Source: an uncultured Bacteroidales bacterium
GTDB lineage: Bacteria > Bacteroidota > Bacteroidia > Bacteroidales > UBA932
DNA length: 64,000 nucleotides
Direction: 5' to 3'
Assembly: GCA_934726455.1 (NCBI GenBank)
Contig: CAKVDS010000001.1
Location: forward strand, 79,452-143,451
Part shown: positions 1,272 through 57,966 of the stretch, piece after piece
Numbering within the stretch: the first letter of the stretch is position 1
How the letters are laid out: each line of letters begins with the position of its first letter
Program-made: the position numbers and the translations under genes
Notes under the pieces: model-generated
The model's input: the letters and a program-made list of their open reading frames with translations, nothing else
The model's database searches: none
What the model was told of the DNA's origin: nothing

Positions 1272-3014
1272 TCAATGCACTTCAATCTGGGTGTCCATTC
1301 TCGCCAGCACTTTGGCTTCTGTGCAGTCTTTGAGGCGGCCGAGAAGCGCACTTTCTTCTGAAGAACCGTAGAACATCTCAAGGACTTTTTCCATCATCGT
1401 CTGCGGACGCGGATAACCGCAGACGCTCCAGTTGCCGAGATCCGGATCCCCGGCTATTGAAGCTGCGTAATTTACAGCGTCCTCGAGTGTCCCTATTTCA
1501 TCGGCCAGTTCGATAGGCAAGGCGTCGGCCCCGGTCCACACGCGGCCCTGCGCTATCTCGTCCACTCTTGATTTAGAGATGGAGCGGTTCTCGGAAACGA
1601 TGGAGACGAAGCGGTCATATATGGTCTCGATGGATCTTGTCATATAGTTGAACTCGTTCTGGTCGAACGGCCTCATGAGACCGAACATGTCCCCGTGCTT
1701 GTGCGAGTTTACGCTCTCAACTCCTACATGAAGTACATCCTTGGCTGTCTTGGAGAAGTCCGGAATCATGCCGAACACTCCTATGGAGCCGGTGAGTGTG
1801 GTGGCGTCAGTGAAAATGACATTGCTCCCGTTTGAAATCCAGTATCCGCCTGAAGCTGCATATTCACCGTATGAAGCCACGACCGGTTTGTCCTTTTGCA
1901 AAAGGTCGAGCTCATTTTTAATCTTCTCTGAAGCGAGTACGCTCCCGCCTGGGGAATTCACGCGGAGAACAACCGCCTTGACGGTTGAATCGGCCCTGAC
2001 TCCTGCTATTATGGATGCGAACCTGTCTCCGGCAACGGCTGTCTTCTGACTTCCGTCAATGATTTCGCCATCGGCATAGATGATGGCGATCTGCTGTTTG
2101 GGGTTGAACGGCGGCACCAAGTTGGCCACGTAGTCGGCAAACGGGATAAGGCTGACTTCGTCGAAACTGTCCTTTACCGCCAATACGGCCAGCTTGTCTT
2201 CAAGCTCGTTTTTTGTCAGAAGTTCATCCACAAGGCCGCACTCCACGAAATCTTGTGGCAGGTTGAGTTTCAAGTTGTTGATGGCATCGTCAAGAGCCTC
2301 GACGGAGATCTCCCTGCTCTGGGAGATGCCCTCGGCTATGCTCTCCCACATGGAATCCACGACGCGTTGATTCTGCTCCCTGTTTTCCGGACTTGATTTG
2401 GATTTTGTGTACATCTCGCCTGCTGACTTGTATTTCCCGTGTCTTATCAGCTGGACATTGACACCGAGACGGCCGAGAAGGTCGCCAAGGAAAATCATCT
2501 GGCTTGAGACGCCGGTGATAGGGACTGTCCCGCCGATATGTGATGTCATGTAGACCTTGTCGGCCACGGAGGCGAGGTAATACCCTCCGGTGGTCGGAGC
2601 TTCGATATATGACACGACCGGCTTGCCGCTGCTCTCCCTGAAATTCGCGAGGGACTTGCGGATCTCTTCAAGGGATGCGATCCCGCTCGCCGAGCCGTCG
2701 GTTTTGAGATATATGTATTGCACCGCCGGGTCTGATGCCGCAGAGTTGATGGCCTGTACGGCATCCCAGATCCCGATGGTCTGCACGTCTCCGCTTCCGC
2801 TGATGGAGGAGAGAGGGTTGGACTCCTGGCTCTGTTCGCTGAGCACGAACTTGGACATGTCCATCACGAGCACACCTGACTTGGGAAGAACCGGAGTGGC
2901 GCTGCCTGCCGCGAGAAGCGCTCCGAGCATTCCGAAGCCGAGGAGGAATATCAGCACTCCCATAATGACCAGGCCGCAGATTACGGCCAGAGTCATCTTT
3001 ACAAAATCTTTCAT
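1272..3014 (-). CDS. sppA: Signal peptide peptidase SppA, 67K (two-domain) type
   Basis: N-terminal TM helix and two ClpP/crotonase-like S49 peptidase repeats (VVLRVNSPGGSVLASE, GEYAASGGYWIS). Start trimmed to MKDFVK at 3014. Confidence 0.85.
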   Translation of the reverse strand: MKDFVKMTLAVICGLVIMGVLIFLLGFGMLGALLAAGSATPVLPKSGVLVMDMSKFVLSEQSQESNPLSSISGSGDVQTIGIWDAVQAINSAASDPAVQYIYLKTDGSASGIASLEEIRKSLANFRESSGKPVVSYIEAPTTGGYYLASVADKVYMTSHIGGTVPITGVSSQMIFLGDLLGRLGVNVQLIRHGKYKSAGEMYTKSKSSPENREQNQRVVDSMWESIAEGISQSREISVEALDDAINNLKLNLPQDFVECGLVDELLTKNELEDKLAVLAVKDSFDEVSLIPFADYVANLVPPFNPKQQIAIIYADGEIIDGSQKTAVAGDRFASIIAGVRADSTVKAVVLRVNSPGGSVLASEKIKNELDLLQKDKPVVASYGEYAASGGYWISNGSNVIFTDATTLTGSIGVFGMIPDFSKTAKDVLHVGVESVNSHKHGDMFGLMRPFDQNEFNYMTRSIETIYDRFVSIVSENRSISKSRVDEIAQGRVWTGADALPIELADEIGTLEDAVNYAASIAGDPDLGNWSVCGYPRPQTMMEKVLEMFYGSSEESALLGRLKDCTEAKVLARMDTQIEVH

Positions 3015-3068
3015 CGTGTAAATAAGTGTAAATTTTGTCAAAAGTAGTAAATTCGCGAGATAAAACAA

Positions 3069-4433
3069 ATGTCTATGGCACAGAAACCTTCAATCCCAAA
3101 GGGTACCAGGGATTTCGGGCAGCGCGAGATGGCTGCGCGGAACTATATTTTCGACACCATCCGTGCAGTGTTCCGCACATACGGTTATTCACAGATAGAG
3201 ACTCCGGCTATGGAGAATCTCTCCACCCTGCTCGGCAAATATGGTGAGGAGGGGGACAAGCTGCTTTTCCGGATACTCAATTCGGGAGACGCTTTCTCCG
3301 GTGTGGACTTCGACAAACCGCTCACTCCCCAGGTGTGTGAGAAAGGACTCCGTTACGACCTGACGGTGCCGTTCGCCCGTTATGTGGTGCAGCACCGTGA
3401 TGAACTGTCATTCCCGTTCAAGCGTTTCCAGATACAGCCGGTGTGGAGGGCTGACCGTCCGCAGAAAGGACGTTACCGTGAGTTCTACCAGTGTGATGTG
3501 GACGCTATCGGAAGCAAGAGCCAGCTCTGCGAACTTGAACTTGTGCAGATAGTTGACAAGGTGTTTGAGAAACTCGGTGTCCGTGTGCTTCTGAAAATCA
3601 ACAACCGCAAGGTTCTTACCGGTCTGGCCGAAATCTGCGGATTCCCCGACAAGGTGGTGGACATCACCGTGGCCATAGACAAACTCGACAAGATAGGGCT
3701 CGATGCTGTCAAGGAGGAGATGCTCTCAAAGGGGCTCTCGCCAGAGGCCGTGGAGATGCTGGAGCCTGTGCTTACCCTTAGCGGCAGCACGACGGAAAAG
3801 ATCGCCGTGATGCGTTCCATGATGGGTTCTTCTCCGACCGGATTGAAGGGATTGGATGAGCTTGAAGAACTGTTCGGATATGTCGATGCGGCCGGAATCG
3901 GAATCCCTGTCGAGTTGGATCTTTCCCTCGCCCGCGGTCTCAACTATTATACCGGAGCCATATTTGAGGTCAAGGCCCTCGACTGGCAGATCGGAAGTAT
4001 CTGCGGAGGCGGACGTTATGATAATCTTACCGGTATTTTCGGCCTGCCGGACATGTCCGGTGTCGGGATCAGCTTCGGGGCGGATCGCATATACGACGTG
4101 CTCATGGGGCTGGACAAATTCCCGGAGAATCTGCGCAGCAGCACCACCGTGCTCTTTGCCAACATGGGGCCGGAAGAGTTGAAGTACATTCTTCCTGTGG
4201 CTTCGGCACTGCGCTCGGAGGGTATCGCCGCCGAAATCTATCCTGATCAGGCAAAACTCAAGAAGCAGTTTGAATACGCAGACCGCAAGTTTATCCCTTT
4301 CATCTCAATCAACGGCGGCTCCGAGGCTGAAGCCGGAGTGGTTAACATCAAGAACCTCTCTTCCGGCGAGCAGAAGAGCTTCCCGAAAGACGACATCAAT
4401 GGCATGAGGGAGTTTCTGCTGCCAGGGGTATAA
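3069..4433 (+). CDS. hisS: Histidine--tRNA ligase
   Basis: PKGTRDF motif, class II aaRS motifs ([12 protein letters not shown]-like, QCDVD) and a C-terminal anticodon-binding domain. Confidence 0.93.
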
Positions 4434-4528
4434 CCGTTGCTTCTGGCACGTGAGCTTGCAACGCGGTGACAGACAGTTGGATATCGGTGGCGGATAAGTG
4501 CTTGATATCCAACGAGAAGATAATGTAG

Positions 4529-4560
4529 CTCCTCCTTGGACAAGAGGAGGATAAGTTTTT
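4529..4560 (+). terminator. Candidate hisS terminator
   Basis: TCCTCC..GGAGGA hairpin followed by TAAGTTTTT. A 10-bp-stem hairpin, GTTGGATATC-N18-GATATCCAAC, lies at 4476-4513. Confidence 0.5.
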
Positions 4561-4734
4561 AAAAGGCTTATTCTCAGGCTGTTATCTGCCACCGGCTTCG
4601 TGTTTCTCATTCGTCCCCTATTTCAACTGGGAGTGGGTTATCTACTGCGCTTTGTTTTTTGCAATTCTATAGGTTTCTCAATGTTGTGTATTCGTACGGT
4701 TCTTAGGGCCTTTTGAAAACCGGTTAGGTTTCTG

Positions 4735-4742
4735 TATATTTG
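4735..4742 (+). promoter_or_regulatory. Bacteroidetes-type -7 box (TAnnTTTG) upstream of the methyltransferase
   Basis: TATATTTG sits within GTATATTTGCCAA. The same extended string precedes the ATPase gene at 28449. Confidence 0.5.
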
Positions 4743-4807
4743 CCAAGACTAGAAGGATGTACCGAAGCATTGGGGATACGATTGTAATATCATAAAAGAC
4801 AAAGGCG

Positions 4808-5935
4808 ATGGCTAACAGTAGTTTGAGTGCGGCAAAAACCACAAAGAATGATGAATTCTACACGCAATACGCTGACATACAAAAGGAGGTAAACGCCTAT
4901 ATTGAATATGACAAGGATGTATTTCGTGACAAGACCGTCCTGTTGCCTTGTGATGACCCGGAGCAGAGCAATTTCACAAAGTTCTTCGCTCAGAATTTTG
5001 AGCGTTATGGATTGAAGAGATTGATATCTACGAGTTATGCAAGAAACAGCAAAAAGTCCAAGTATGGCATCGACACTTACCCCTCTTTGTTTGAAGAGGA
5101 ATCTCCGATTTATGATGCGGACAAGTCCAAAAGCCACGGCAGGATATTCATTCTTGACAGGACTGATGTGACTGGAGACGGACGTGTTGACTACGATGAT
5201 TTGACTTGGGAATATCTTGATGGTGACGGTGATTTCCGTTCTGATGAGGTCAAGCATCTAAGGGACGAGGCTGATGTGATAGTAACCAACCCTCCGTTCA
5301 GTATGTTCAGAGAGTTTCTTGCATGGGTAGTTGAGGCTCATAAGAAGTTCCTTGTAATCGGGAATATGAATGCCATAACCTATAAGGAGGTGTTCCCGTT
5401 GATTAGGGAGAACAAGATATGGCTGGGTTATGGCTTTAGTCATGGAAATGCCTATTTTGGTATTCCTGAAAGTGCATCCACGGAATATGCTTCCGGTGTA
5501 TATGATGAAAATACAAAGTTGGTTAAATTTCGTAATTGCTGCTGGTTCACCAATCTTGACCACGGCAGAAGACACCAGCCTTTGTCGTTGATGACGATGG
5601 CGGACAATCTGAAATTCAGTCGGCATAAGGAAATACGTGGCAAGGAGGCTTACGACCACTATGACAATTATGATGCGATAGAAGTGCCGTATACCGATGC
5701 GATTCCAAGCGACTACACTGAGTGTCTTGGGGTTCCTGTCAGTTTCTTGGATAAGTATTGCCCTTTTCAGTACAAAATCATAGGTGCGACAGAAAGTGAG
5801 GGGAAAGGATTTTCAGCAGGATTGTGGAATCCGGAAAGTGGAATATCACAGGCGACCATTAGGGGAAACAAGGTTTATAAACGGCTGTTTATCAAGAAGT
5901 TAGCAGAAGAGAGAGAGAGAGAGAGAGAGCTATAG
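4808..5935 (+). CDS. N6-adenine DNA methyltransferase, EcoRI-methylase-like family
   Basis: N-terminal NDEFYTQ motif, catalytic VTNPPFS (NPPF motif IV) and C-terminal GVPVSFLDKYCP..IIG...YKRLFIKK module. The 3' end is encoded by an AG repeat (EREREREL*). Confidence 0.85.
   Translation: MANSSLSAAKTTKNDEFYTQYADIQKEVNAYIEYDKDVFRDKTVLLPCDDPEQSNFTKFFAQNFERYGLKRLISTSYARNSKKSKYGIDTYPSLFEEESPIYDADKSKSHGRIFILDRTDVTGDGRVDYDDLTWEYLDGDGDFRSDEVKHLRDEADVIVTNPPFSMFREFLAWVVEAHKKFLVIGNMNAITYKEVFPLIRENKIWLGYGFSHGNAYFGIPESASTEYASGVYDENTKLVKFRNCCWFTNLDHGRRHQPLSLMTMADNLKFSRHKEIRGKEAYDHYDNYDAIEVPYTDAIPSDYTECLGVPVSFLDKYCPFQYKIIGATESEGKGFSAGLWNPESGISQATIRGNKVYKRLFIKKLAEEREREREL
5908..5929. repeat. (AG)11 dinucleotide simple-sequence repeat at the 3' end of the methyltransferase ORF
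   Basis: Read directly: 22 nt of uninterrupted AG, ending 4 nt before the stop codon. Confidence 0.95.
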
Positions 5936-5939
5936 AAGA

Positions 5940-6218
5940 ATGATCGATGCTATTGTAAAAATGGGCATCGCACCGGAAGAGATAACGTATTACTCCGGAA
6001 TCATGGGTGTCCCGATATCATTTCTTGACAAGTACTGTCCGGAGCAGTTTGAGATAATCGGACAAACACAAGGAGATTCAGGAAAGGAACTTGGCTTGAA
6101 ACCGTTTGACAGAGCCTTGAGAGAATTGAATAGCGGATTGAGAGATGGGCAATTGTATTATATGGAGAATGGTTTACCAATAAAACCTTATGCACGAGTG
6201 TTGATAAGAAAAATCTAA
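5940..6218 (+). CDS. Stand-alone second copy of the methyltransferase C-terminal module (gene remnant or SSR-switchable extension)
   Basis: GIMGVPISFLDKYCPEQFEIIG....YARVLIRKI parallels residues ~300-365 of the upstream methyltransferase. It starts 4 nt after the methyltransferase stop and ends 6 nt before the next gene. Confidence 0.5.
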   Translation: MIDAIVKMGIAPEEITYYSGIMGVPISFLDKYCPEQFEIIGQTQGDSGKELGLKPFDRALRELNSGLRDGQLYYMENGLPIKPYARVLIRKI

Positions 6219-6224
6219 GTTAAT

Positions 6225-7388
6225 ATGAAAACCACATTGCGCACAGACATAACGATAGCCGACATCTGTAAGGATTTCGACTATAATGAATATGAGGGGA
6301 AAGGACTTTTCGGGCTCGCTGGCAATCTTGTTATCCAACCCGAATATCAACGGAACTATATCTATGCTGACGGCAAGAAAGATGTGGCTGTCATTCAATC
6401 CGTTTTGAATGGTTATCCTCTTGGGCTGATATATTTTAATACGGTCGGTGATGGAAAATTCGAAGTGTTGGATGGTCAGCAGAGAATAACATCCTTGGGT
6501 CGTTTCCTTATTGATAAATTTCCTATAACTGGCAGTAATGGCATACCTCAGTATTTCTCCAGTCTCCCTAAAGACAAGCAAGAACTCATCCTTGAAACCA
6601 AACTTCTTATTTATGAGTGTGAGGGCGTGGAGAGTGAGATTAAGGAGTGGTTCAGAACCATCAATATCGCAGGCATTCCTCTGAATGAGCAGGAACTTCT
6701 GAATGCAATCTATTCTGGCCCTTTTGTGACATTATGCAAAGAAGAATTCAGTAATAGCCAGAACTCCCACATTCAAAAGTGGAGCAGTTATCTTAATGGC
6801 GACCCAAAACGTCAGGATTTTCTTGCCACGGCTCTTGATTGGGTCAGCAAAGGAAAGGTCGAAGACTATATGGGCCGACACCGTTACGATACTGGCATCA
6901 GCGAAATTAAAACCTATTTCAATACTGTCATTGATTGGGTTTCAAGAGTGTTCAAGGATGTGGAGAATGAAATGAAAGGGCTTCCTTGGGGGCAGTATTA
7001 TGAGAAGTACCATACTAATCCGTATTCTTCGGAATATGTGTCGGGACGTGTCCATGCATTGTATGCAGATCCTTATGTCAAGAACCGCAAGGGAATATTC
7101 GAGTTCATCCTTGGTGGGGAGACGGAGACAAGGCTTCTTGATGTCCGTGTTTTTGATGAAGCGACCAAAAGGAGCGTGTATGACAATCAAACCGCTAAAG
7201 CTAAAGAAGATGGAGTCTCCAACTGCCCATTATGTGCCATAGGGCCTGGTTCCAACCGTACACGAATTTACAAGCTGAATGAAATGGATGCCGACCACGT
7301 TACCGCTTGGTCAAAGAACGGAGAGACCGACATCAGCAATTGCCAAATGCTCTGCAAGAGCCACAACAGGGCGAAAGGCAACAGGTAG
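6225..7388 (+). CDS. DUF262 (ParB/GmrS-like) domain fused to a C-terminal HNH nuclease
   Basis: IQPEYQRNY and [13 protein letters not shown] motifs are typical of DUF262. The C-terminus has CPLC...[32 protein letters not shown] (HNH). Confidence 0.85.
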
Positions 7389-7389
7389 T

Positions 7390-7443
7390 ATGCACTTTTT
7401 TTTGTGCAGTTTTTGCTAAAATATGCACTTTTTTTTGTGCAGT
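7390..7443. repeat. Two perfect 21-nt direct repeats, each a TGCAC-T8-GTGCA hairpin
   Basis: ATGCACTTTTTTTTGTGCAGT occurs at 7390-7410 and 7423-7443. Confidence 0.9.
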
Positions 7444-7447
7444 GTAT

Positions 7448-7455
7448 TATATTTG
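7448..7455 (+). promoter_or_regulatory. -7 box TATATTTG for the ATPase gene
   Basis: Matches TAnnTTTG about 20 nt upstream of ATG 7475. Confidence 0.55.
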
Positions 7456-7474
7456 CAAAAAATGATGACTTTTG

Positions 7475-8653
7475 ATGGAAGGCTTATACAATACGTTTCG
7501 CATTAAACTTGCACTCACGCCGATGGCTTATCTGCGCAGTTTCCACGAGCAGGTGAATTGGAAGAGCCGTCTGGTCTGCATCATGGGACAGAAAGGTGTC
7601 GGGAAGTCCACTATGATTCTTCAACATATCAAGAAGTATGACAACCCTGAGGAGACGCTGTACGTGACAGCGGACAATATGTATTTTGCCGGGCACACTC
7701 TCTATGAACTTGCCGGGATGTTTTTCGCTCAAGGCGGGAAGCGCTTGTACATAGATGAGATACATAAGTACAAGGGATGGTCAACAGAAATAAAAAACAT
7801 CTACGATGATTTTCCTACGCTTTGTGTGGTATATTCCGGGAGCAGCCTGTTGGCACTGAAGAGAGGAAACAAAGCGGACCTCAGCAGACGCAGCGTCCCT
7901 TATGAAATGCCTGGACTTTCTTTCAGGGAATATCTTAATATCCGCAACGGATGGAGTCTTAAGACCTCTGCTCTTGAAGAAATCCTGCATGGGAAAGTCG
8001 ATTTTCCTGAAGGAGAACATCGTCCCCTTAAATATTACAAAGAATATTGCAGGCATGGATTTTACCCTTTTTTCAAAGAGGGGGATGCCGAAATACGTCT
8101 GCAGAATGCGATTCTGGCCACTGTGGAAGATGATATCCCGGACTATGCGGATATGACCGTCGCGTCAGCTGTAAAGCTTAAGAAGCTGATGTATATTCTG
8201 GCAAAGAGTGTCCCGTTCAAACCCAGTAATGACACGCTTGGACGTGACCTCGGGATCAGCCGGAACGTCGTGCCTGATTACATAAGTTATCTCGAAGCAA
8301 CGGGTATGTTCAACGCGCTCCGTGAACCGGGCCATAGCGACAGTCTGTTGGCGAAGACTGAGAAACTGTATTTGGGGAACAGCAATATAGCATATTCATT
8401 GTCGGAGGACGGCATCATTGATGACGGCAATATGCGTGAGACCAATTTTTTGGCCTGGACTAAACAAGTGTGCTCTCCGGTTTCTTCCAAGATATCTGAT
8501 TTCGAGATAGGGGATGTTACATTCGAAGTCGGCGGCAGGAACAAAAAGTCCGATCAGATAAAGGATGCTCGGGTCGGTTATCTTGTCAAAGATAATCTTG
8601 AGTATGCTTCAGGGCGCTCCATCCCTATATGGATGTTCGGCTTTCTATATTGA
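7475..8653 (+). CDS. AAA+ ATPase (AAA_14-type) with DUF4143-like C-terminal domain
   Basis: Walker A GQKGVGKST and Walker B LYIDEIHKY. The C-terminal DFEIG..FEVGGRNKK resembles the DUF4143 nuclease-fold motif. Confidence 0.8.
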   Translation: MEGLYNTFRIKLALTPMAYLRSFHEQVNWKSRLVCIMGQKGVGKSTMILQHIKKYDNPEETLYVTADNMYFAGHTLYELAGMFFAQGGKRLYIDEIHKYKGWSTEIKNIYDDFPTLCVVYSGSSLLALKRGNKADLSRRSVPYEMPGLSFREYLNIRNGWSLKTSALEEILHGKVDFPEGEHRPLKYYKEYCRHGFYPFFKEGDAEIRLQNAILATVEDDIPDYADMTVASAVKLKKLMYILAKSVPFKPSNDTLGRDLGISRNVVPDYISYLEATGMFNALREPGHSDSLLAKTEKLYLGNSNIAYSLSEDGIIDDGNMRETNFLAWTKQVCSPVSSKISDFEIGDVTFEVGGRNKKSDQIKDARVGYLVKDNLEYASGRSIPIWMFGFLY

Positions 8654-8673
8654 CAAGAAAGAACCGGCTCAAC

Positions 8674-9696
8674 TTACAGCAACAGCATCACTGCGAAGAC
8701 ATACAGCAGGAATCCCTGAAGCTTGAGCTTGTCGGCGCTTGTACGGGTGATCATGGTCTCGGTAGGGTCTGTCTGCAGCATGGATTCCAGTTCTTCCATG
8801 TGCGGAGGACGGTTGAAAGACCACTTGCTTATGATTTGACCGTCAGAGGCATAGGTGAGACCGCCGTTTGAGCGGTTGAGCGTCAGCAGGGTTTTCCTGT
8901 CTGCAAAATAGGTGTAAGGCAACACGTCAGGCCCGGCCAGCTGTGAGATTTCTTCCGGATACGATGCCGTGAGCAGGATGGCGGTATAGCCTGCGGAAGA
9001 GGACTCCCGGAGAAGACCGGAAATCTTGTTCCAGCCTTTGCCGCCCGGTCTGGACGGGTCGTAGACGGAGCAGATCATCACCCTGTCATCGAGGGCCAGC
9101 GAATCAGCATATTCCCCGTCAGCATTGCTGAAAGACAATCCTTCAGCGGAGAGTTCCGCCCCGCATTTGTAATTGGTGAAGTCAACCATCGGTATGGACA
9201 GGGCAGAATACAGGAAAAACAGGCAGACAGATACACCTGTGATGCAGAAACTTACATATTTCACTTTCCGTGTCGGCTCCTGACTGCCAGGTGGCAGGAA
9301 AGCCGCAGCCCAGAGAGCGAGCAATGCTATGTTCTTCAGAAAACTCTGAAGGTGAGTCAGGTGCACAGCCTCCCCGAAGCATCCGCAGTCCATCGACGGG
9401 TTGAAAATCAGCAGCACCAAAGTGAGCAGGGTGAAGAACGCGAGAACGGCGAGCGTGATTATGCCGGTGAGCCTCCGCCATACACCGCAAAGCAGGGCGG
9501 CTCCAAGAATCGTCTCCGCGAGCGCGCCTGCAGCCCCCGTAAAATACGCGAGAGGACGCAGGAAACCGAGGTGCAGGAATTTGAAATACTCCTCCACAAC
9601 GAGCCCGGCACCTACCGGATCCATCAATTTCAGAAGACCCGCCACGAAGAAGACGAAGCCTATTATGATGGCGCTAATCCTTCTTATGATTCTCAT
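8674..9696 (-). CDS. MauE/DoxX-family membrane protein with C-terminal soluble domain
   Basis: Four N-terminal TM helices and a DCGCFG motif typical of MauE/DoxX. Confidence 0.6.
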   Translation of the reverse strand: MRIIRRISAIIIGFVFFVAGLLKLMDPVGAGLVVEEYFKFLHLGFLRPLAYFTGAAGALAETILGAALLCGVWRRLTGIITLAVLAFFTLLTLVLLIFNPSMDCGCFGEAVHLTHLQSFLKNIALLALWAAAFLPPGSQEPTRKVKYVSFCITGVSVCLFFLYSALSIPMVDFTNYKCGAELSAEGLSFSNADGEYADSLALDDRVMICSVYDPSRPGGKGWNKISGLLRESSSAGYTAILLTASYPEEISQLAGPDVLPYTYFADRKTLLTLNRSNGGLTYASDGQIISKWSFNRPPHMEELESMLQTDPTETMITRTSADKLKLQGFLLYVFAVMLLL

Positions 9697-55837: not shown

Positions 55838-55881
55838 ACGAAATGCAAAGATAAGAAAAATCTATATCTTTGTTCCGGGAT

Positions 55882-57186
55882 ATGAATAAGGTATATATTG
55901 AGACATACGGCTGCCAGATGAATGTAGCCGACACAGAGGTGGTTTTCTCCATACTTGGTAAAGCCGGATACACCAGGACTGAAGACATCGGCGATGCTGA
56001 TGTGATCATGGCCAACACATGCTCGATACGCGACAATGCGGAGCAGAGGATATGGGGACGCATAGACTTTTTCAACCTGCAGAGGCGTTCGCGTCCCGAT
56101 GTGGTTGTAGGGATTCTCGGCTGTATGGCCGAGCGCCTCAAGGAGGCTCTGCTCGAATCCGGCAAGGTCGACATCGTGGCGGGTCCGGATGCCTACCGTA
56201 ACCTTCCGAAACTCCTTGAAGCCGTCTCGGAAGGACATCCGCAGATGGATGTGATTCTCTCGCGGGAAGAGACCTACGGCGACATTTCTCCGGTGAGGAT
56301 GGACCGCAACGGGGTATCCGCTTTCATTTCTATCATGAGAGGCTGCAACAATGTATGCTCATACTGCGTGGTGCCATACACGAGAGGGGCGGAGCGCAGC
56401 CGGGACTTCAGGACAATAGTCCGCGAAGCCTGCGAGTGCTGCCGTGCCGGATACAAGGAGATTACACTGTTGGGGCAGAATGTGGATTCGTACCGCTTTG
56501 AGGATGTGGATTTTGCCAAGCTATTGGCAATGGTCGCCGAGGCTGTGCCGCAGATGCGTCTGCGTTTCTCTACGTCCAACCCGCAGGACATCTCTGATGA
56601 AGTGCTCACCACGATGGCTTCCTGTCCCAACATCTGCCACCACATACATCTTCCTGTCCAGTCCGGTTCGGACCGCATACTCGAGAAGATGCGCCGCCGC
56701 TACAGCCGGGAGTGGTACTTGTCCCGTGTGGACAGGATCCGCGAGATCCTCCCCGACTGCGCCATCTCCACTGATGTCATAGCCGGATTCTGCTCCGAGA
56801 CTGAGGAGGACCACAAGGATACGCTGAGCCTCTTCGAGAAAGTCGGATTCGATGCGGCCTATATGTTTTATTATTCCGAGCGGCCCGGGACACTTGCCGC
56901 CAAGAAGTACCCTGACGATGTGGATCAGGCCACCAAGACCAGACGTCTTGAGGAAATCATCGCCCTGCAGAACAGGCTCTCGCTTGAGAGCAACCGCCGG
57001 GATGTGGGGAAAAAGTTCCGTGTGCTCGTGGAAGGCCCGTCCAAGAAAAATCCGGACGAACTCTGCGGGCGCAACCAGCAGAACAAGATGTGTGTGTGGC
57101 CGGACAAAGCCCACAAGGCCGGAGACTTCGTGGACGTTGTTGTGAACGACTGCACCCAGGCTACGCTGCTTTGCTCTCTGGTGTAG
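55882..57186 (+). CDS. miaB: tRNA-2-methylthio-N6-dimethylallyladenosine synthase
   Basis: YIETYGCQMN, NTCSIR, radical-SAM CNNVCSYCVVP, and a TRAM domain. Confidence 0.9.
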   Translation: MNKVYIETYGCQMNVADTEVVFSILGKAGYTRTEDIGDADVIMANTCSIRDNAEQRIWGRIDFFNLQRRSRPDVVVGILGCMAERLKEALLESGKVDIVAGPDAYRNLPKLLEAVSEGHPQMDVILSREETYGDISPVRMDRNGVSAFISIMRGCNNVCSYCVVPYTRGAERSRDFRTIVREACECCRAGYKEITLLGQNVDSYRFEDVDFAKLLAMVAEAVPQMRLRFSTSNPQDISDEVLTTMASCPNICHHIHLPVQSGSDRILEKMRRRYSREWYLSRVDRIREILPDCAISTDVIAGFCSETEEDHKDTLSLFEKVGFDAAYMFYYSERPGTLAAKKYPDDVDQATKTRRLEEIIALQNRLSLESNRRDVGKKFRVLVEGPSKKNPDELCGRNQQNKMCVWPDKAHKAGDFVDVVVNDCTQATLLCSLV

Positions 57187-57195
57187 AGCCGCCCG

Positions 57196-57212
57196 TTTTT
57201 TTTTGGGGGGGG
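57196..57212. repeat. Adjacent homopolymers T9 G8 in the miaB-radC intergenic region
   Basis: Read directly: TTTTTTTTTGGGGGGGG. Confidence 0.9.
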
Positions 57213-57273
57213 TTGACGGGGCCGTTTTAGTAAGCGGCTGTTTTTGAAAAACTTTATAACAATACTTATAACT

Positions 57274-57966
57274 ATGAAAATTAAAGATTTGTGCGAGAGC
57301 GAAAGGCCTCGCGAGAAAATGATGCATTTCGGGCCGTCAAGCCTGAGCGATGGAGAACTGATAGCCGTGCTCCTGCGGAGCGGAAGCCGGACGGAGAGCG
57401 CATTGGATCTCTCCCAACGCCTGCTGGCGATGTCCGGCGGCCATCTGACTGAACTTTTCAATATGCCCTTATCCAGAATGACTTCGATTCCCGGAATAGG
57501 CTCGGTGAAGGTTGCATCCGTGCTTGCCGCGTTCGAGCTCGGCAAACGCTTCCTGGCGGAGGGCTCCTGCGTGCAGAAGAAGCCGATACTGACAGCCCGC
57601 ATGGTGTACGACATCATGATTCCATCTCTCAAGGGGCTTAAGCACGAGGAATGCTGGGTGCTGTTTCTCAATGACAGCAGCTATCTTCTCTCTAAAGTGA
57701 AAGTCACCAGCGGAGGCGGTCGTTCGACCGTGATAGATGTCAGGCAGGTGGTGCGACTGGCGCTGGACAGGAGCGCCTCCGGGGTGATTCTTGTCCACAA
57801 CCATCCGAGCGGCAACCCGAATCCAAGCAACGCCGACATCACCCAGACAGACTCCCTGCACAAGGCCTGCGGCGCCTGCGGACTGGAGCTGATGGATCAC
57901 GTGGTGGTGTGCGACGATGCCTTCTTCTCATTCTCCGAAGAGCGGATGTACACAACAGCACTCTGA
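57274..57966 (+). CDS. radC: RadC-family JAB/MPN domain protein
   Basis: RPREKM, ELIAVLLRSG, HhH GIGSVKV, JAMM motif VHNHPSGNPNPSNAD. Confidence 0.88.
   Translation: MKIKDLCESERPREKMMHFGPSSLSDGELIAVLLRSGSRTESALDLSQRLLAMSGGHLTELFNMPLSRMTSIPGIGSVKVASVLAAFELGKRFLAEGSCVQKKPILTARMVYDIMIPSLKGLKHEECWVLFLNDSSYLLSKVKVTSGGGRSTVIDVRQVVRLALDRSASGVILVHNHPSGNPNPSNADITQTDSLHKACGACGLELMDHVVVCDDAFFSFSEERMYTTAL

Follow-up and report, generated by a model that had tools for sequence, protein, structure and literature searches.

The window analysed here is a stretch of 64,000 nucleotides from a contig of an uncultured gut Bacteroidales bacterium, in which the convergent genes hisS and mauE, both identified by Pfam, enclose an island with a GC content of 0.41-0.47 over positions 4500-8500, compared to 0.52-0.59 in the flanks. 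The island holds four ORFs, all on the + strand, with gaps of 4 nt and then 6 nt among the first three. An initial annotation had described this AT-rich accessory island and its co-directional ORFs; the re-derived coordinates are the same, and HMM searches support all of its domain calls, although DUF4143, at 25.3 bits, falls under the 28.1-bit cut-off. The features are as follows, in window coordinates.

4421-4433: left edge of the insert, where homology with empty-site relatives ends (hisS stop codon at 4431-4433)
4530-4551, + strand: terminator-like hairpin downstream of hisS
4713-4742, + strand: promoter-like site upstream of the methylase (TTGAAA-16-TATATT; consensus match only)
4778-7388, + strand: mobile two-gene methylase-nuclease cassette, 88% DNA identity with resolvase/Phage_CRI elements (L007-L012)
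4808-5935, + strand: EcoRI-family N6-adenine methyltransferase, short form, 375 aa, with an NPPF motif and the frame set by (AG)11
5429-5542, + strand: mid-protein variable region VR1, ~aa 208-245, from comparison of P0121, P0122 and P0126
5672-5902, + strand: C-terminal module 1, aa 289-365, "IIGATESEGKGFSAGLWNPESG...VYKRLFIKKL", dN/dS 0.017
5908-5929, + strand: (AG)11 simple sequence repeat that acts as the frame switch from module 1 to module 2 and separates the 375-aa methylase from the 92-aa ORF
5940-6218, + strand: C-terminal module 2, here the 92-aa ORF, dN/dS 0.056
6225-7388, + strand: DUF262 (GmrSD_N, DGQQR)-HNH nuclease, 387 aa, motifs intact, 6 nt after the module-2 stop
7380-8672, + strand: separate insertion with an AAA_14/DUF4143 ATPase gene (7472-8653, 393 aa)
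7389-7443, + strand: two identical 22-nt terminator-like hairpins (7389-7410 and 7422-7443), in the AAA-cassette DNA that starts at 7380
8673: right edge of the insert, where homology with empty-site relatives resumes (MauE stop codon starting at 8674, - strand)

The hisS-mauE (hisS-doxX) junction is an empty site in two close relatives (L111 and L112), where MauE is followed by HisS only 67 bp away; their HisS is 93% and their MauE 86% identical to those of the window. In blastn comparisons of these relatives and of L113 with the window, homology ends at 4420; in L111 and L112 it picks up at 8673, and ~4421-8672 is therefore inserted DNA, acquired horizontally between hisS and mauE. The island showed neither an integrase or transposase nor a meaningful flanking direct repeat, as the initial annotation had also reported. 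The insert is a composite of two independent pieces, ~4434-7388 and 7380-8672. Within the promoter-like site ahead of the methylase lies TATATTTG (4735-4742), which we take to resemble the Bacteroidetes -7 motif TAnnTTTG, and TATATTTG also forms a promoter-like motif at 7448-7455, ahead of the AAA_14/DUF4143 gene.

The AAA_14/DUF4143 gene (AAA_14 E=3.8e-26) is a separate, unrelated insertion outside the restriction-modification (R-M) unit. The four genes had been proposed to form one new defence system, with the ATPase cooperating with the methylase and nuclease, and the methylase, nuclease and ATPase genes are indeed adjacent and co-directional in L001, L002 and L110 as well as here, while the ATPase has a hit to the candidate family PDC-S01 of PADLOC. 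This is nevertheless very improbable. L113 holds the ATPase segment alone at the same site, with 99% amino acid identity; the gene is not beside the methylase-nuclease pair in L003-L012, L014-L020, L103 and L107, and in L013 and L104 a gene of this type lies ~3-4 kb upstream of the pair, with unrelated genes between. In the window the two terminator-like hairpins stand between the pair and the ATPase gene, which has its own promoter-like motif.

The methylase ORF matches the EcoRI_methylase Pfam profile over its complete length (positions 2-344 of 345, E=3.5e-121), and the nuclease matches GmrSD_N/DUF262 (E=2.5e-20) and HNH (E=3e-8), with a dN/dS of 0.077. The PADLOC models REase_II (PDLC03418; full-length nuclease match, E=3.1e-82) and MTase_II (PDLC03297; E=1.3e-86) support the view of the pair as an R-M or defence module, in which methylation would mark self DNA and the nuclease would attack unmarked DNA. 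The coupling of the two genes is not the new architecture it had been suggested to be, since the pair is widespread and already catalogued: there are >8000 homologues at E<=1e-10, ~72% identical across phyla, and copies are found on plasmids of Actinobacteria, Enterococcus and Moraxella and on resolvase/Rep elements without the AAA_14/DUF4143 gene. The pairing is kept across these phyla and plasmids, and the stop and start codons overlap or abut in canonical pairs; the 6-nt spacing to the nuclease start is seen again in L007-L012 and L018-L020. No experimentally characterised member or recognition sequence for the pair was found in the searchable literature.

The 92-aa ORF had been described as a duplicate of the methylase C-terminus. 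It does match positions 275-344 of the EcoRI_methylase profile (E=3.4e-13), but it is no independent gene and in many sister contigs forms one reading frame with the methylase; it is a second C-terminal methylase module, moved in and out of frame by the hypermutable (AG)n repeat. Canonical single-module methylases have this module 2 as their native "type A" C-terminus. The methylase looks chimeric, since the type of module 1 is the native one in a diverged sister subfamily and is the sole C-terminus in many single-module family members. Substitution ratios indicate that both modules are under purifying selection, and module 2 is without stops in every locus. The variable core of module 2 has been swapped among lineages, with at least six types, while its flanks remain homologous, and VR1 is a mosaic of types a, b and c between near-identical methylases. 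The C-terminal module is probably a DNA-recognition module, a role read solely from this mosaic pattern. An AlphaFold model of the C-terminal half of the methylase was unusable (pLDDT <50).

Across the 64 kb, the (AG)11 tract is the only dinucleotide repeat longer than 5 units; the number of tracts with at least 6 units expected from Markov simulations is 0.055. The initial annotation did not mention the (AG)11 tract. Sister contigs that are otherwise identical carry (AG)6, 8, 9 or 10, (AG)11 and (AG)9 occur in DNA otherwise identical over 560 bp, and L110 holds (AG)8, all of these being comparisons between assemblies and not within one population. Frame simulation fuses the methylase and the 92-aa ORF into a product of 466-470 aa when n is 6, 9 or 12. 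Within one 90% cluster the methylases are 373, 375, 377, 466 or 468 aa long, with the same scatter in poly-G lineages. The junction repeat differs by lineage (AG6-11, G8, G9), with natural in-frame and out-of-frame variants in the G8-G9 lineages, and AG or G repeats are at that junction in lineages with identities as low as 59%. Both out-of-frame readings end within 2-8 codons in all lineages; in the (AG)n lineage they stop by the ATG of the 92-aa ORF (ORF2), at a TAG 4 nt upstream or an overlapping TGA (ATGA). The long form ends with a stop codon at 6216-6218, ahead of the nuclease ATG at 6225. Among the members listed, ~61 contigs (~40%) are in frame and ~93 out of frame, a tally to which cluster 3 contributes 15 of 59 members. 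One nuclease (P0001), 100% identical, is found with both methylase states.

We favour, with a probability of about 60%, a mobile R-M cassette whose methylase C-terminal module is phase-variable, joined by an unrelated ATPase piece. Slipped-strand changes in repeat length would toggle the methylase between a short product of core and module 1 (this window, n=11, 375 aa) and a long product of core, module 1, linker and module 2 (n = 6, 9 or 12). The switch would alter which DNA sequences get methylated, a change that we infer because the module core is shuffled like a target-recognition domain and because of the switch in JHP1272 of Helicobacter pylori. Translation of the nuclease may also shift, because the long-form stop sits 6 nt before its start.

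Switching in JHP1272 is safe because nuclease and methylase are one polypeptide, and a change of specificity should be dangerous beside a separate nuclease that reads DNA independently; yet both frame states are common with an intact nuclease. It is possible, if doubtful, that the nuclease has no specificity of its own and acts only when complexed with or targeted by the methylase, as Res does with Mod in Type III systems, which is compatible with phase variation of the module and extends it. The NTPase-like DUF262 domain would then be a nucleotide-dependent switch, the repeat would safely re-target or disarm restriction, and the Type II label would be wrong for a family that forms an R-M class of its own. 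Nuclease conservation is uniform (65-92%), with neither a variable block nor a region that co-varies with module type, while the variable regions of the methylase are swapped, and nuclease identity follows that of the methylase core, so that the L003 and L004 nucleases are 84% identical beside unrelated C-terminal cores. Both this and the identical nuclease found with either methylase state agree with such dependence, and the overlapping or abutting codons of canonical pairs suggest stoichiometric co-expression. Moreover, repeat-driven phase variation of methylases is characteristic of systems in which restriction relies on the methylase or specificity subunit (Types I, III and IIG). The nuclease N-domain weakly resembles the NTP-binding ParB/BrxU fold, but none of the fold matches reaches significance (best E=6e-3), the complex is hypothetical and PADLOC places the nuclease under Type II. 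In two lineages with a replaced module 2 (types B and C) the nuclease is frameshifted or without HNH, which fits an own, now mismatched, specificity. An unlikely course is that both methylase forms methylate the same sites and the repeat chiefly switches restriction: the long frame, ending just before the nuclease ATG, would allow re-initiation, whereas the short frames, stopping ~290 nt upstream, would leave the nuclease poorly translated. The recurrent 6-nt spacing and the close junctions of canonical pairs are as this would have it, and viable out-of-frame states with an intact nuclease are accounted for. However, since both short frames end at or next to the ORF2 ATG in the (AG)n lineage, re-initiation could bring ribosomes through ORF2 to the nuclease; Bacteroidetes translation initiation depends only weakly on coupling, and the shuffling of the module-2 core and the purifying selection are left unexplained.

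The chimeric look of the methylase, and a short form that matches the complete Pfam profile, would also suit a module 2 that is the leftover 3' end of a methylase into which a foreign module recombined, with the repeat as a neutral, functionless expansion in an unconstrained linker. A dN/dS of 0.056 without stops in any locus, the sizeable in-frame share, the different repeats at the same junction and the prompt out-of-frame stops in all lineages make this improbable. Repeats are error-prone in short-read metagenome assemblies, but errors of sequencing or assembly are an extremely improbable source of the differences in tract length: these span 6-11 units in whole AG units every time, the lengths recur over several independent samples and assemblers, contigs >160 kb included, and the poly-G junctions show the same pattern independently.

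Like the Type II pairs of PADLOC, the cassette has adjacent, co-directional methylase and nuclease genes with full-length matches to both models, and some relatives (L103, L106) have an upstream HTH controller-like gene. The nuclease is atypical of orthodox Type II systems in its ParB/Srx-type DUF262 domain (an NTPase in GmrSD/BrxU), and the methylase of the present lineage adds the repeat-gated second C-terminal module. With GmrSD, BrxU and SspE the nuclease shares an N-terminal DUF262 with DGQQR and a C-terminal His-Me/HNH-type nuclease, BrxU being its best, though weak, structural match, and SspE offers an earlier case in which a DUF262 nuclease cooperates with a modification module of the host (PMC12707154). 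It differs from them in its size (387 aa versus 560-770 aa), in having PF01844 HNH rather than DUF1524/PF07510 and in its obligatory pairing with an m6A methylase, a partnership that excludes dependence on that modification.

The phasevarions of Type III mod and Type I hsdS/hsdM genes are alike in having simple sequence repeats within the methylase or specificity genes of R-M systems, tract lengths that differ among close strains, recognition-domain shuffling and a conserved restriction subunit (PMC5909438, PMC7383803). Their repeats turn the methylase ON or OFF or truncate HsdS, whereas in the present cassette every frame yields a complete catalytic methylase and the switch affects only the extra C-terminal module, in a different gene family and in a gut commensal Bacteroidales host. 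The (AG)n switch is best read as analogous to that of the H. pylori Type IIG enzyme JHP1272/HP1353-HP1354 (Hpy99XIV; Krebes et al. 2014, PMC3936762). In that enzyme a second homopolymeric tract near the 3' end gates an extra 94-aa C-terminal recognition domain, a paralogue of part of the regular recognition domain, and the short and long forms are both active, with a change from GGWTAA to GGWCNA (PMC3936762). JHP1272 is a single polypeptide of the MmeI family (nuclease, methylase and target-recognition domain), so that cutting and marking switch together, while the present system has an EcoRI-family methylase, a separate nuclease, an (AG)n or poly-G tract depending on lineage, and a change of specificity that is presumed by analogy.

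A C-terminus of two modules, the second gated by a short repeat, recurs on EcoRI-family methylases of gut Bacteroidales with different repeat types. In the window, such a methylase lies in an island of four co-directional open reading frames (ORFs) between hisS and a MauE-family gene. The ORFs proposed in the initial annotation were reproduced, as was the AT-rich character of the stretch (GC of 0.41-0.47 over 4500-8500 versus 0.52-0.59 in both flanks).

Features of the island and its flanks (window coordinates)
3069-4433, plus strand: hisS, the left flank
4808-5935, plus strand: methylase ORF, 375 aa, with an EcoRI_methylase domain
5908-5929: (AG)11 repeat between the 375-aa and 92-aa ORFs
5940-6218, plus strand: small ORF, 92 aa, with a partial EcoRI_methylase match (module 2)
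6225-7388, plus strand: nuclease ORF, 387 aa, GmrSD_N/DUF262 and HNH
7389-7410 and 7422-7443: two identical terminator-like hairpins before the ATPase gene
7472-8653, plus strand: ATPase ORF, 393 aa, AAA_14 and weak DUF4143
8674-9696, minus strand: MauE-family gene, the right flank

Pfam searches backed every domain call. The methylase carries the N6-adenine catalytic motif (NPPF), and its MTase domain is complete, spanning positions 2-344 of the 345 in PF13651 (EcoRI_methylase, E=3.5e-121); the 92-aa ORF corresponds to positions 275-344 of that profile (E=3.4e-13). The nuclease matches PF03235 (GmrSD_N/DUF262, E=2.5e-20) and HNH (E=3e-8), and the ATPase ORF matches AAA_14 (E=3.8e-26) and, under the gathering score, DUF4143. 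The island shows no integrase, no transposase and no convincing flanking repeat, in keeping with the first inspection, nor does it have a tRNA-like feature, and a direct-repeat search gave no convincing target-site duplication. The Rfam search of the island returned 0 matches, and NCBIfam has no model for any of its 4 proteins.

That the island is genuinely accessory was confirmed by an empty-site comparison, for which a MauE-based scan of metagenome contigs supplied close relatives. The limits found in this way are almost identical to those first proposed.

The MauE/HisS junction in relatives of the window
L111 and L112 (HisS 93%, MauE 86% identical): MauE and HisS 67 bp apart; homology to the window stops at 4420 and resumes at 8673
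L113 (HisS 95% identical): AAA gene alone between MauE and HisS (99% aa identity), equivalent to window 7380-8672
L110 (HisS 97% identical): AAA, nuclease, module 2 and methylase between MauE and HisS
L116, L118, L119 and L123 (more distant): MauE and HisS adjacent, no insert
L122 (more distant): GH2 glycosidase gene at the junction (L122 9059-10492)

The GH2 gene in L122 means that the junction accepts differing cargo. A HisS-based species-level scan of GTDB genomes was uninformative (best HisS identity 82%, hisS-mauE synteny kept in none), and a search with the exact MauE for strain-level empty sites returned only island-bearing contigs. Beside the insertion site, the two-gene block of SppA and HisS undergoes a recurrent, local inversion: it is flipped relative to MauE in L110 (12923-16069, versus window 1272-4433), L114, and L115 and oriented as in the window in L111-L113 and L116.

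The island is the product of two independent acquisitions, the methylase-nuclease cassette and the AAA/DUF4143 gene, since L113 has the AAA gene alone and the DNA common to the window and L007-L012 spans 4778 to exactly 7388, which is the methylase and nuclease genes and nothing else. L007-L012 are unrelated elements with two serine recombinases and a Phage_CRI replication gene. The ATPase, at first considered a partner in a four-gene unit, is thus a bystander. Its gene has a promoter-like motif of its own and is not beside the pair in any other lineage examined; only in L013 and L104 does an AAA/DUF4143-type gene occur, about 3-4 kb upstream of the pair. The protein matches the PADLOC candidate family PDC-S01 of AAA_14/DUF4143 ATPases (PDLC04787, E=1.7e-22). 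Also, it is 99% identical between L113 (9047-10225) and the window (7472-8653), compared to just 84-95% for the flanking core proteins, suggesting that the gene may have spread recently and independently.

The initial annotation proposed a new restriction-modification (R-M) architecture. However, the combination of a methylase with a DUF262-HNH nuclease is not new, being widespread and already in the PADLOC catalogue, where the nuclease matches the Type II REase model REase_II PDLC03418 (E=3.1e-82, residues 9-386 against model positions 8-371 of 372) and the methylase fits the Type II MTase model MTase_II PDLC03297 over its full length (E=1.3e-86). The methyltransferase and endonuclease are separate genes side by side, a pairing kept in all loci examined. 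At E<=1e-10, >8000 homologues of the nuclease are among the matches listed, with a typical length of 387 aa and ~72% identity in Bacteroidota, Cloacimonadota, Chlorobiota relatives, and Parcubacteria. In Brumimicrobium (L003) and Cloacimonas (L004-L006), the gene for a 388-aa EcoRI-family methylase overlaps the nuclease gene or ends right beside it. The pair is also plasmid-borne, in Arthrobacter, Rhodococcus, Enterococcus faecium, Moraxella, Pediococcus, and others, where the annotation goes no further than “DUF262 domain-containing protein” and “adenine-specific methyltransferase EcoRI family protein.” In the literature on DUF262 with HNH and a methyltransferase, on PF13651, and on Bacteroidales phase variation, neither the pair nor a two-module methylase was found described.

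In L014-L016 (3765-4763), a DUF1016/YhcG (PD-(D/E)XK-like) gene lies between methylase and nuclease, making a three-gene cassette variant with module-2 type E. In Cloacimonas (L004/L006 8469-10151, L005 6852-10067), the pair lies just downstream of a tyrosine integrase and adjoins defence genes that vary with the strain: one strain has a full GmrSD (DUF262 and DUF1524), another an Eco57I/MmeI-like Type IIG enzyme. The locus resembles a defence island in which cassettes turn over.

The 92-aa ORF, taken for a duplicated cassette, is indeed a C-terminal methylase module, but it joins the methylase ORF when (AG)n is in frame. In canonical single-module methylases, this module 2 forms the native C-terminus (...GVPISFLDKYCPEQFEIIGQTQGDSGKELGLKPF...DGQLYYMENG..KPYARVLIRK), and module 1 (...IIGATESEGKGFSAGLWNPESG...VYKRLFIKKL) is a different version of it. 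Because the module 1 type is native to other members of the family, as the only C-terminus of many (P0293, P0298, P0310, P0329, P0330), and one of these proteins, P0310, adjoins a diverged DUF262-HNH nuclease 37% identical to the window's, the methylase looks chimeric, with a native core, an imported module, the repeat, and a native module. Both modules retain the invariant residues of the family and are under strong purifying selection, with dN/dS between the window and L007 of 0.017 for module 1 and 0.056 for module 2 (core 0.068, nuclease 0.077).

Modules are also shuffled. The variable core of module 2 comes in at least six types (A-F) among lineages, and between the window and L018 the DNA homology is broken only across this core (6064-6221), which indicates a cassette swap; the mid-protein region at about aa 208-245 is likewise mosaic. 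The wider family includes proteins with 2-4 tandem modules. P0284, P0279, and P0358 are among the EcoRI-family methylases with up to four C-terminal modules and/or periodic linkers, and linkers such as TDRQTDRQTDRQ and SAQLSSAQLSSAQLS show 4- and 5-residue periodicity in the protein sequence (TDRQ x3, SAQLS x3), implying probable tetra- and pentanucleotide repeats. The AlphaFold model of the long methylase (mean pLDDT 54.6, C-terminal half <50) is too low in confidence to show module packing, and Foldseek matched it to generic Rossmann methyltransferases only.

The tract between the ORFs is the sole dinucleotide repeat of more than 5 units in the 64 kb, with 0.055 tracts of at least 6 units expected per window in Markov-chain simulations. 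A contig from a different sample (L002) has (AG)9, is otherwise 100% identical over 560 bp, and joins both ORFs into a 468-aa protein. In a frame simulation, n = 6, 9, and 12 gave products of 466, 468, and 470 aa, and all other n gave short products ending in ...EL* or ...AIEE*. The window's 90% protein cluster holds proteins of 373, 375, 377, 466, and 468 aa, which correspond to (AG)8, 11, 10, 6, and 9; P0244 (contig of 185,826 bp) is the window's methylase except for tract length, and the L110 tract is (AG)8. Other lineages have G8 or G9 at the identical junction, with natural in- and out-of-frame variants one base apart (e.g., KKLRGGYRELIE... versus KKLRGGIEN* and KKLRGGVSRTD*). Among the cluster members listed, about 61 contigs are in frame and about 93 out of frame, cluster 3 being partly counted. 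As in SSR-mediated phase-variable genes, repeat length sets the frame and the tract is polymorphic among near-identical sequences. Such variation, seen between assemblies and not inside one culture, is characteristic of a hypermutable repeat.

Through the repeat, the methylase would alternate phase-variably between a form that ends in module 1 and a form with module 2 added. Recombinase-driven and inversion switching were considered as well: a search for the inverted or direct repeats of a shufflon found none convincing, and inversion was rejected since the modules are co-directional and just ~35-40% identical in protein. Both short frames stop at or beside the ORF2 ATG, with a TAG 4 nt upstream or a TGA overlapping it as ATGA (the window's lineage), so re-initiation might also yield module 2 as a separate 92-aa peptide. 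Elsewhere in the window, a T9 run directly followed by G8 (57196-57212), the only G/C homopolymer of at least 8 in 64 kb, sits between plus-strand ORFs at 55870-57186 and 57244-57966 and could be a further slippage-prone regulatory tract.

How the nuclease relates to these modules bears on the class of the system. Covariation of nuclease and module type was looked for and is not seen among close relatives; only the deeply diverged sister subfamily, with its 37% identical nuclease, accompanies the other module type. Nuclease identity to the window's (92% beside module-2 type A, 77% beside F, 65% beside E) tracks the methylase core, the alignments across module types have no discrete variable block, and the nucleases of L003 and L004 share 84% identity despite unrelated C-terminal cores in their methylases. 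Damaged nucleases accompany some replaced modules, with a frameshift near residue 277 in type B (L018-L020) and loss of the HNH motif in type C (L103). The intact nuclease of the window (P0001) occurs, 100% identical, with the short and with the long methylase, which means that neither state is lethal. Methylation would be expected to shield self DNA from the nuclease, this being the sole arrangement compatible with obligatory co-inheritance of both genes. The nuclease could tolerate the switch if translational coupling ties it to the long frame, which stops 6 nt ahead of the nuclease ATG; it is also possible that its targeting depends on the methylase, as in Type III systems, or that both methylase forms protect.

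One could consider these pairs a distinct R-M class, in which the methylase targets or licenses a nuclease that lacks sequence specificity, the ParB/Srx-type NTPase domain acts as the switch, and gut Bacteroidales string alternative C-terminal recognition modules behind hypermutable repeats. We give this reading roughly one chance in four. If true, pairs whose present label is “Type II” or just “DUF262 protein” would serve commensals as a phase-variable switch, with multiple specificities, of both restriction and the epigenetic state, and the four-module proteins and periodic linkers hint that module stringing is general. In pathogens such as Haemophilus, Neisseria, and Helicobacter, the switching of DNA methylases by repeats has been studied extensively; to our knowledge, there is little on it from gut Bacteroidales, whose known R-M phase variation is by DNA inversion. 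The two-module methylase is a newly seen variation on SSR-driven R-M phase variation: the repeat leaves the methylase on and adds a second, interchangeable C-terminal module, the nuclease being a separate protein. If the module sets specificity, these commensals could flip their methylome, and possibly their barrier to phages and plasmids, at high frequency; also, with both states viable beside an intact nuclease, the nuclease family would not be orthodox Type II. Current annotation splits or truncates the genes (375 aa and 92 aa) and hides the switch, and the locus sharpens the question of how this widespread nuclease family is controlled.

Among known systems, orthodox Type II R-M is resembled in the adjacent M and R genes, the complete N6-adenine MTase, and the match to a curated REase model. 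The small genes that overlap the methylase start in some loci recall Type II controller (C) proteins: a 112-aa HTH_3/HTH_26 gene in L103 (892-1230) and L106 (1386-1724), and an 82-102-aa ORF without a Pfam match in L007-L012 and L018 (L007 4272-4520). The window lacks such a gene, as its homology to L007 starts only at 4778. However, the conserved nuclease set against shuffled methylase modules, together with the NTPase-like DUF262 domain, raises doubt that the nuclease recognises the methylase's target sequence independently with only Mg2+, as an orthodox Type II enzyme does. The GmrSD-family Type IV enzymes share the N-terminal DUF262, and the nuclease's “LDGQQRITS” is invariant across alignments. 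They differ in that the nuclease has no DUF1524 (GmrSD_C, PF07510), PF01844 HNH alone being detected, and in that an EcoRI-family methylase always precedes it, whereas GmrSD enzymes cleave in a modification-dependent way and have no cognate methyltransferase. PDB sequence searches with methylase and nuclease gave no relative with a solved structure. The nuclease's AlphaFold model (pLDDT 73) had weak, non-significant Foldseek matches to BrxU (E=6e-3), ParB CTPase domains, and an HNH nickase; used solely as consistency checks, these agree with a predicted layout of a compact N-domain of ParB/Srx type, a helical middle part, and HNH at the C-terminus.

The closest precedent for a repeat-gated second C-terminal module is JHP1272/HP1353-54 of H. 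pylori, in which a second homopolymeric tract gates an additional 94-aa recognition domain at the C-terminus, a paralogue of part of the regular domain, and the motif changes from GGWTAA to GGWCNA (PMC3936762). By analogy with JHP1272, and with the module core behaving as a shuffled TRD, we favour a switch of specificity as the probable outcome of the repeat described here.
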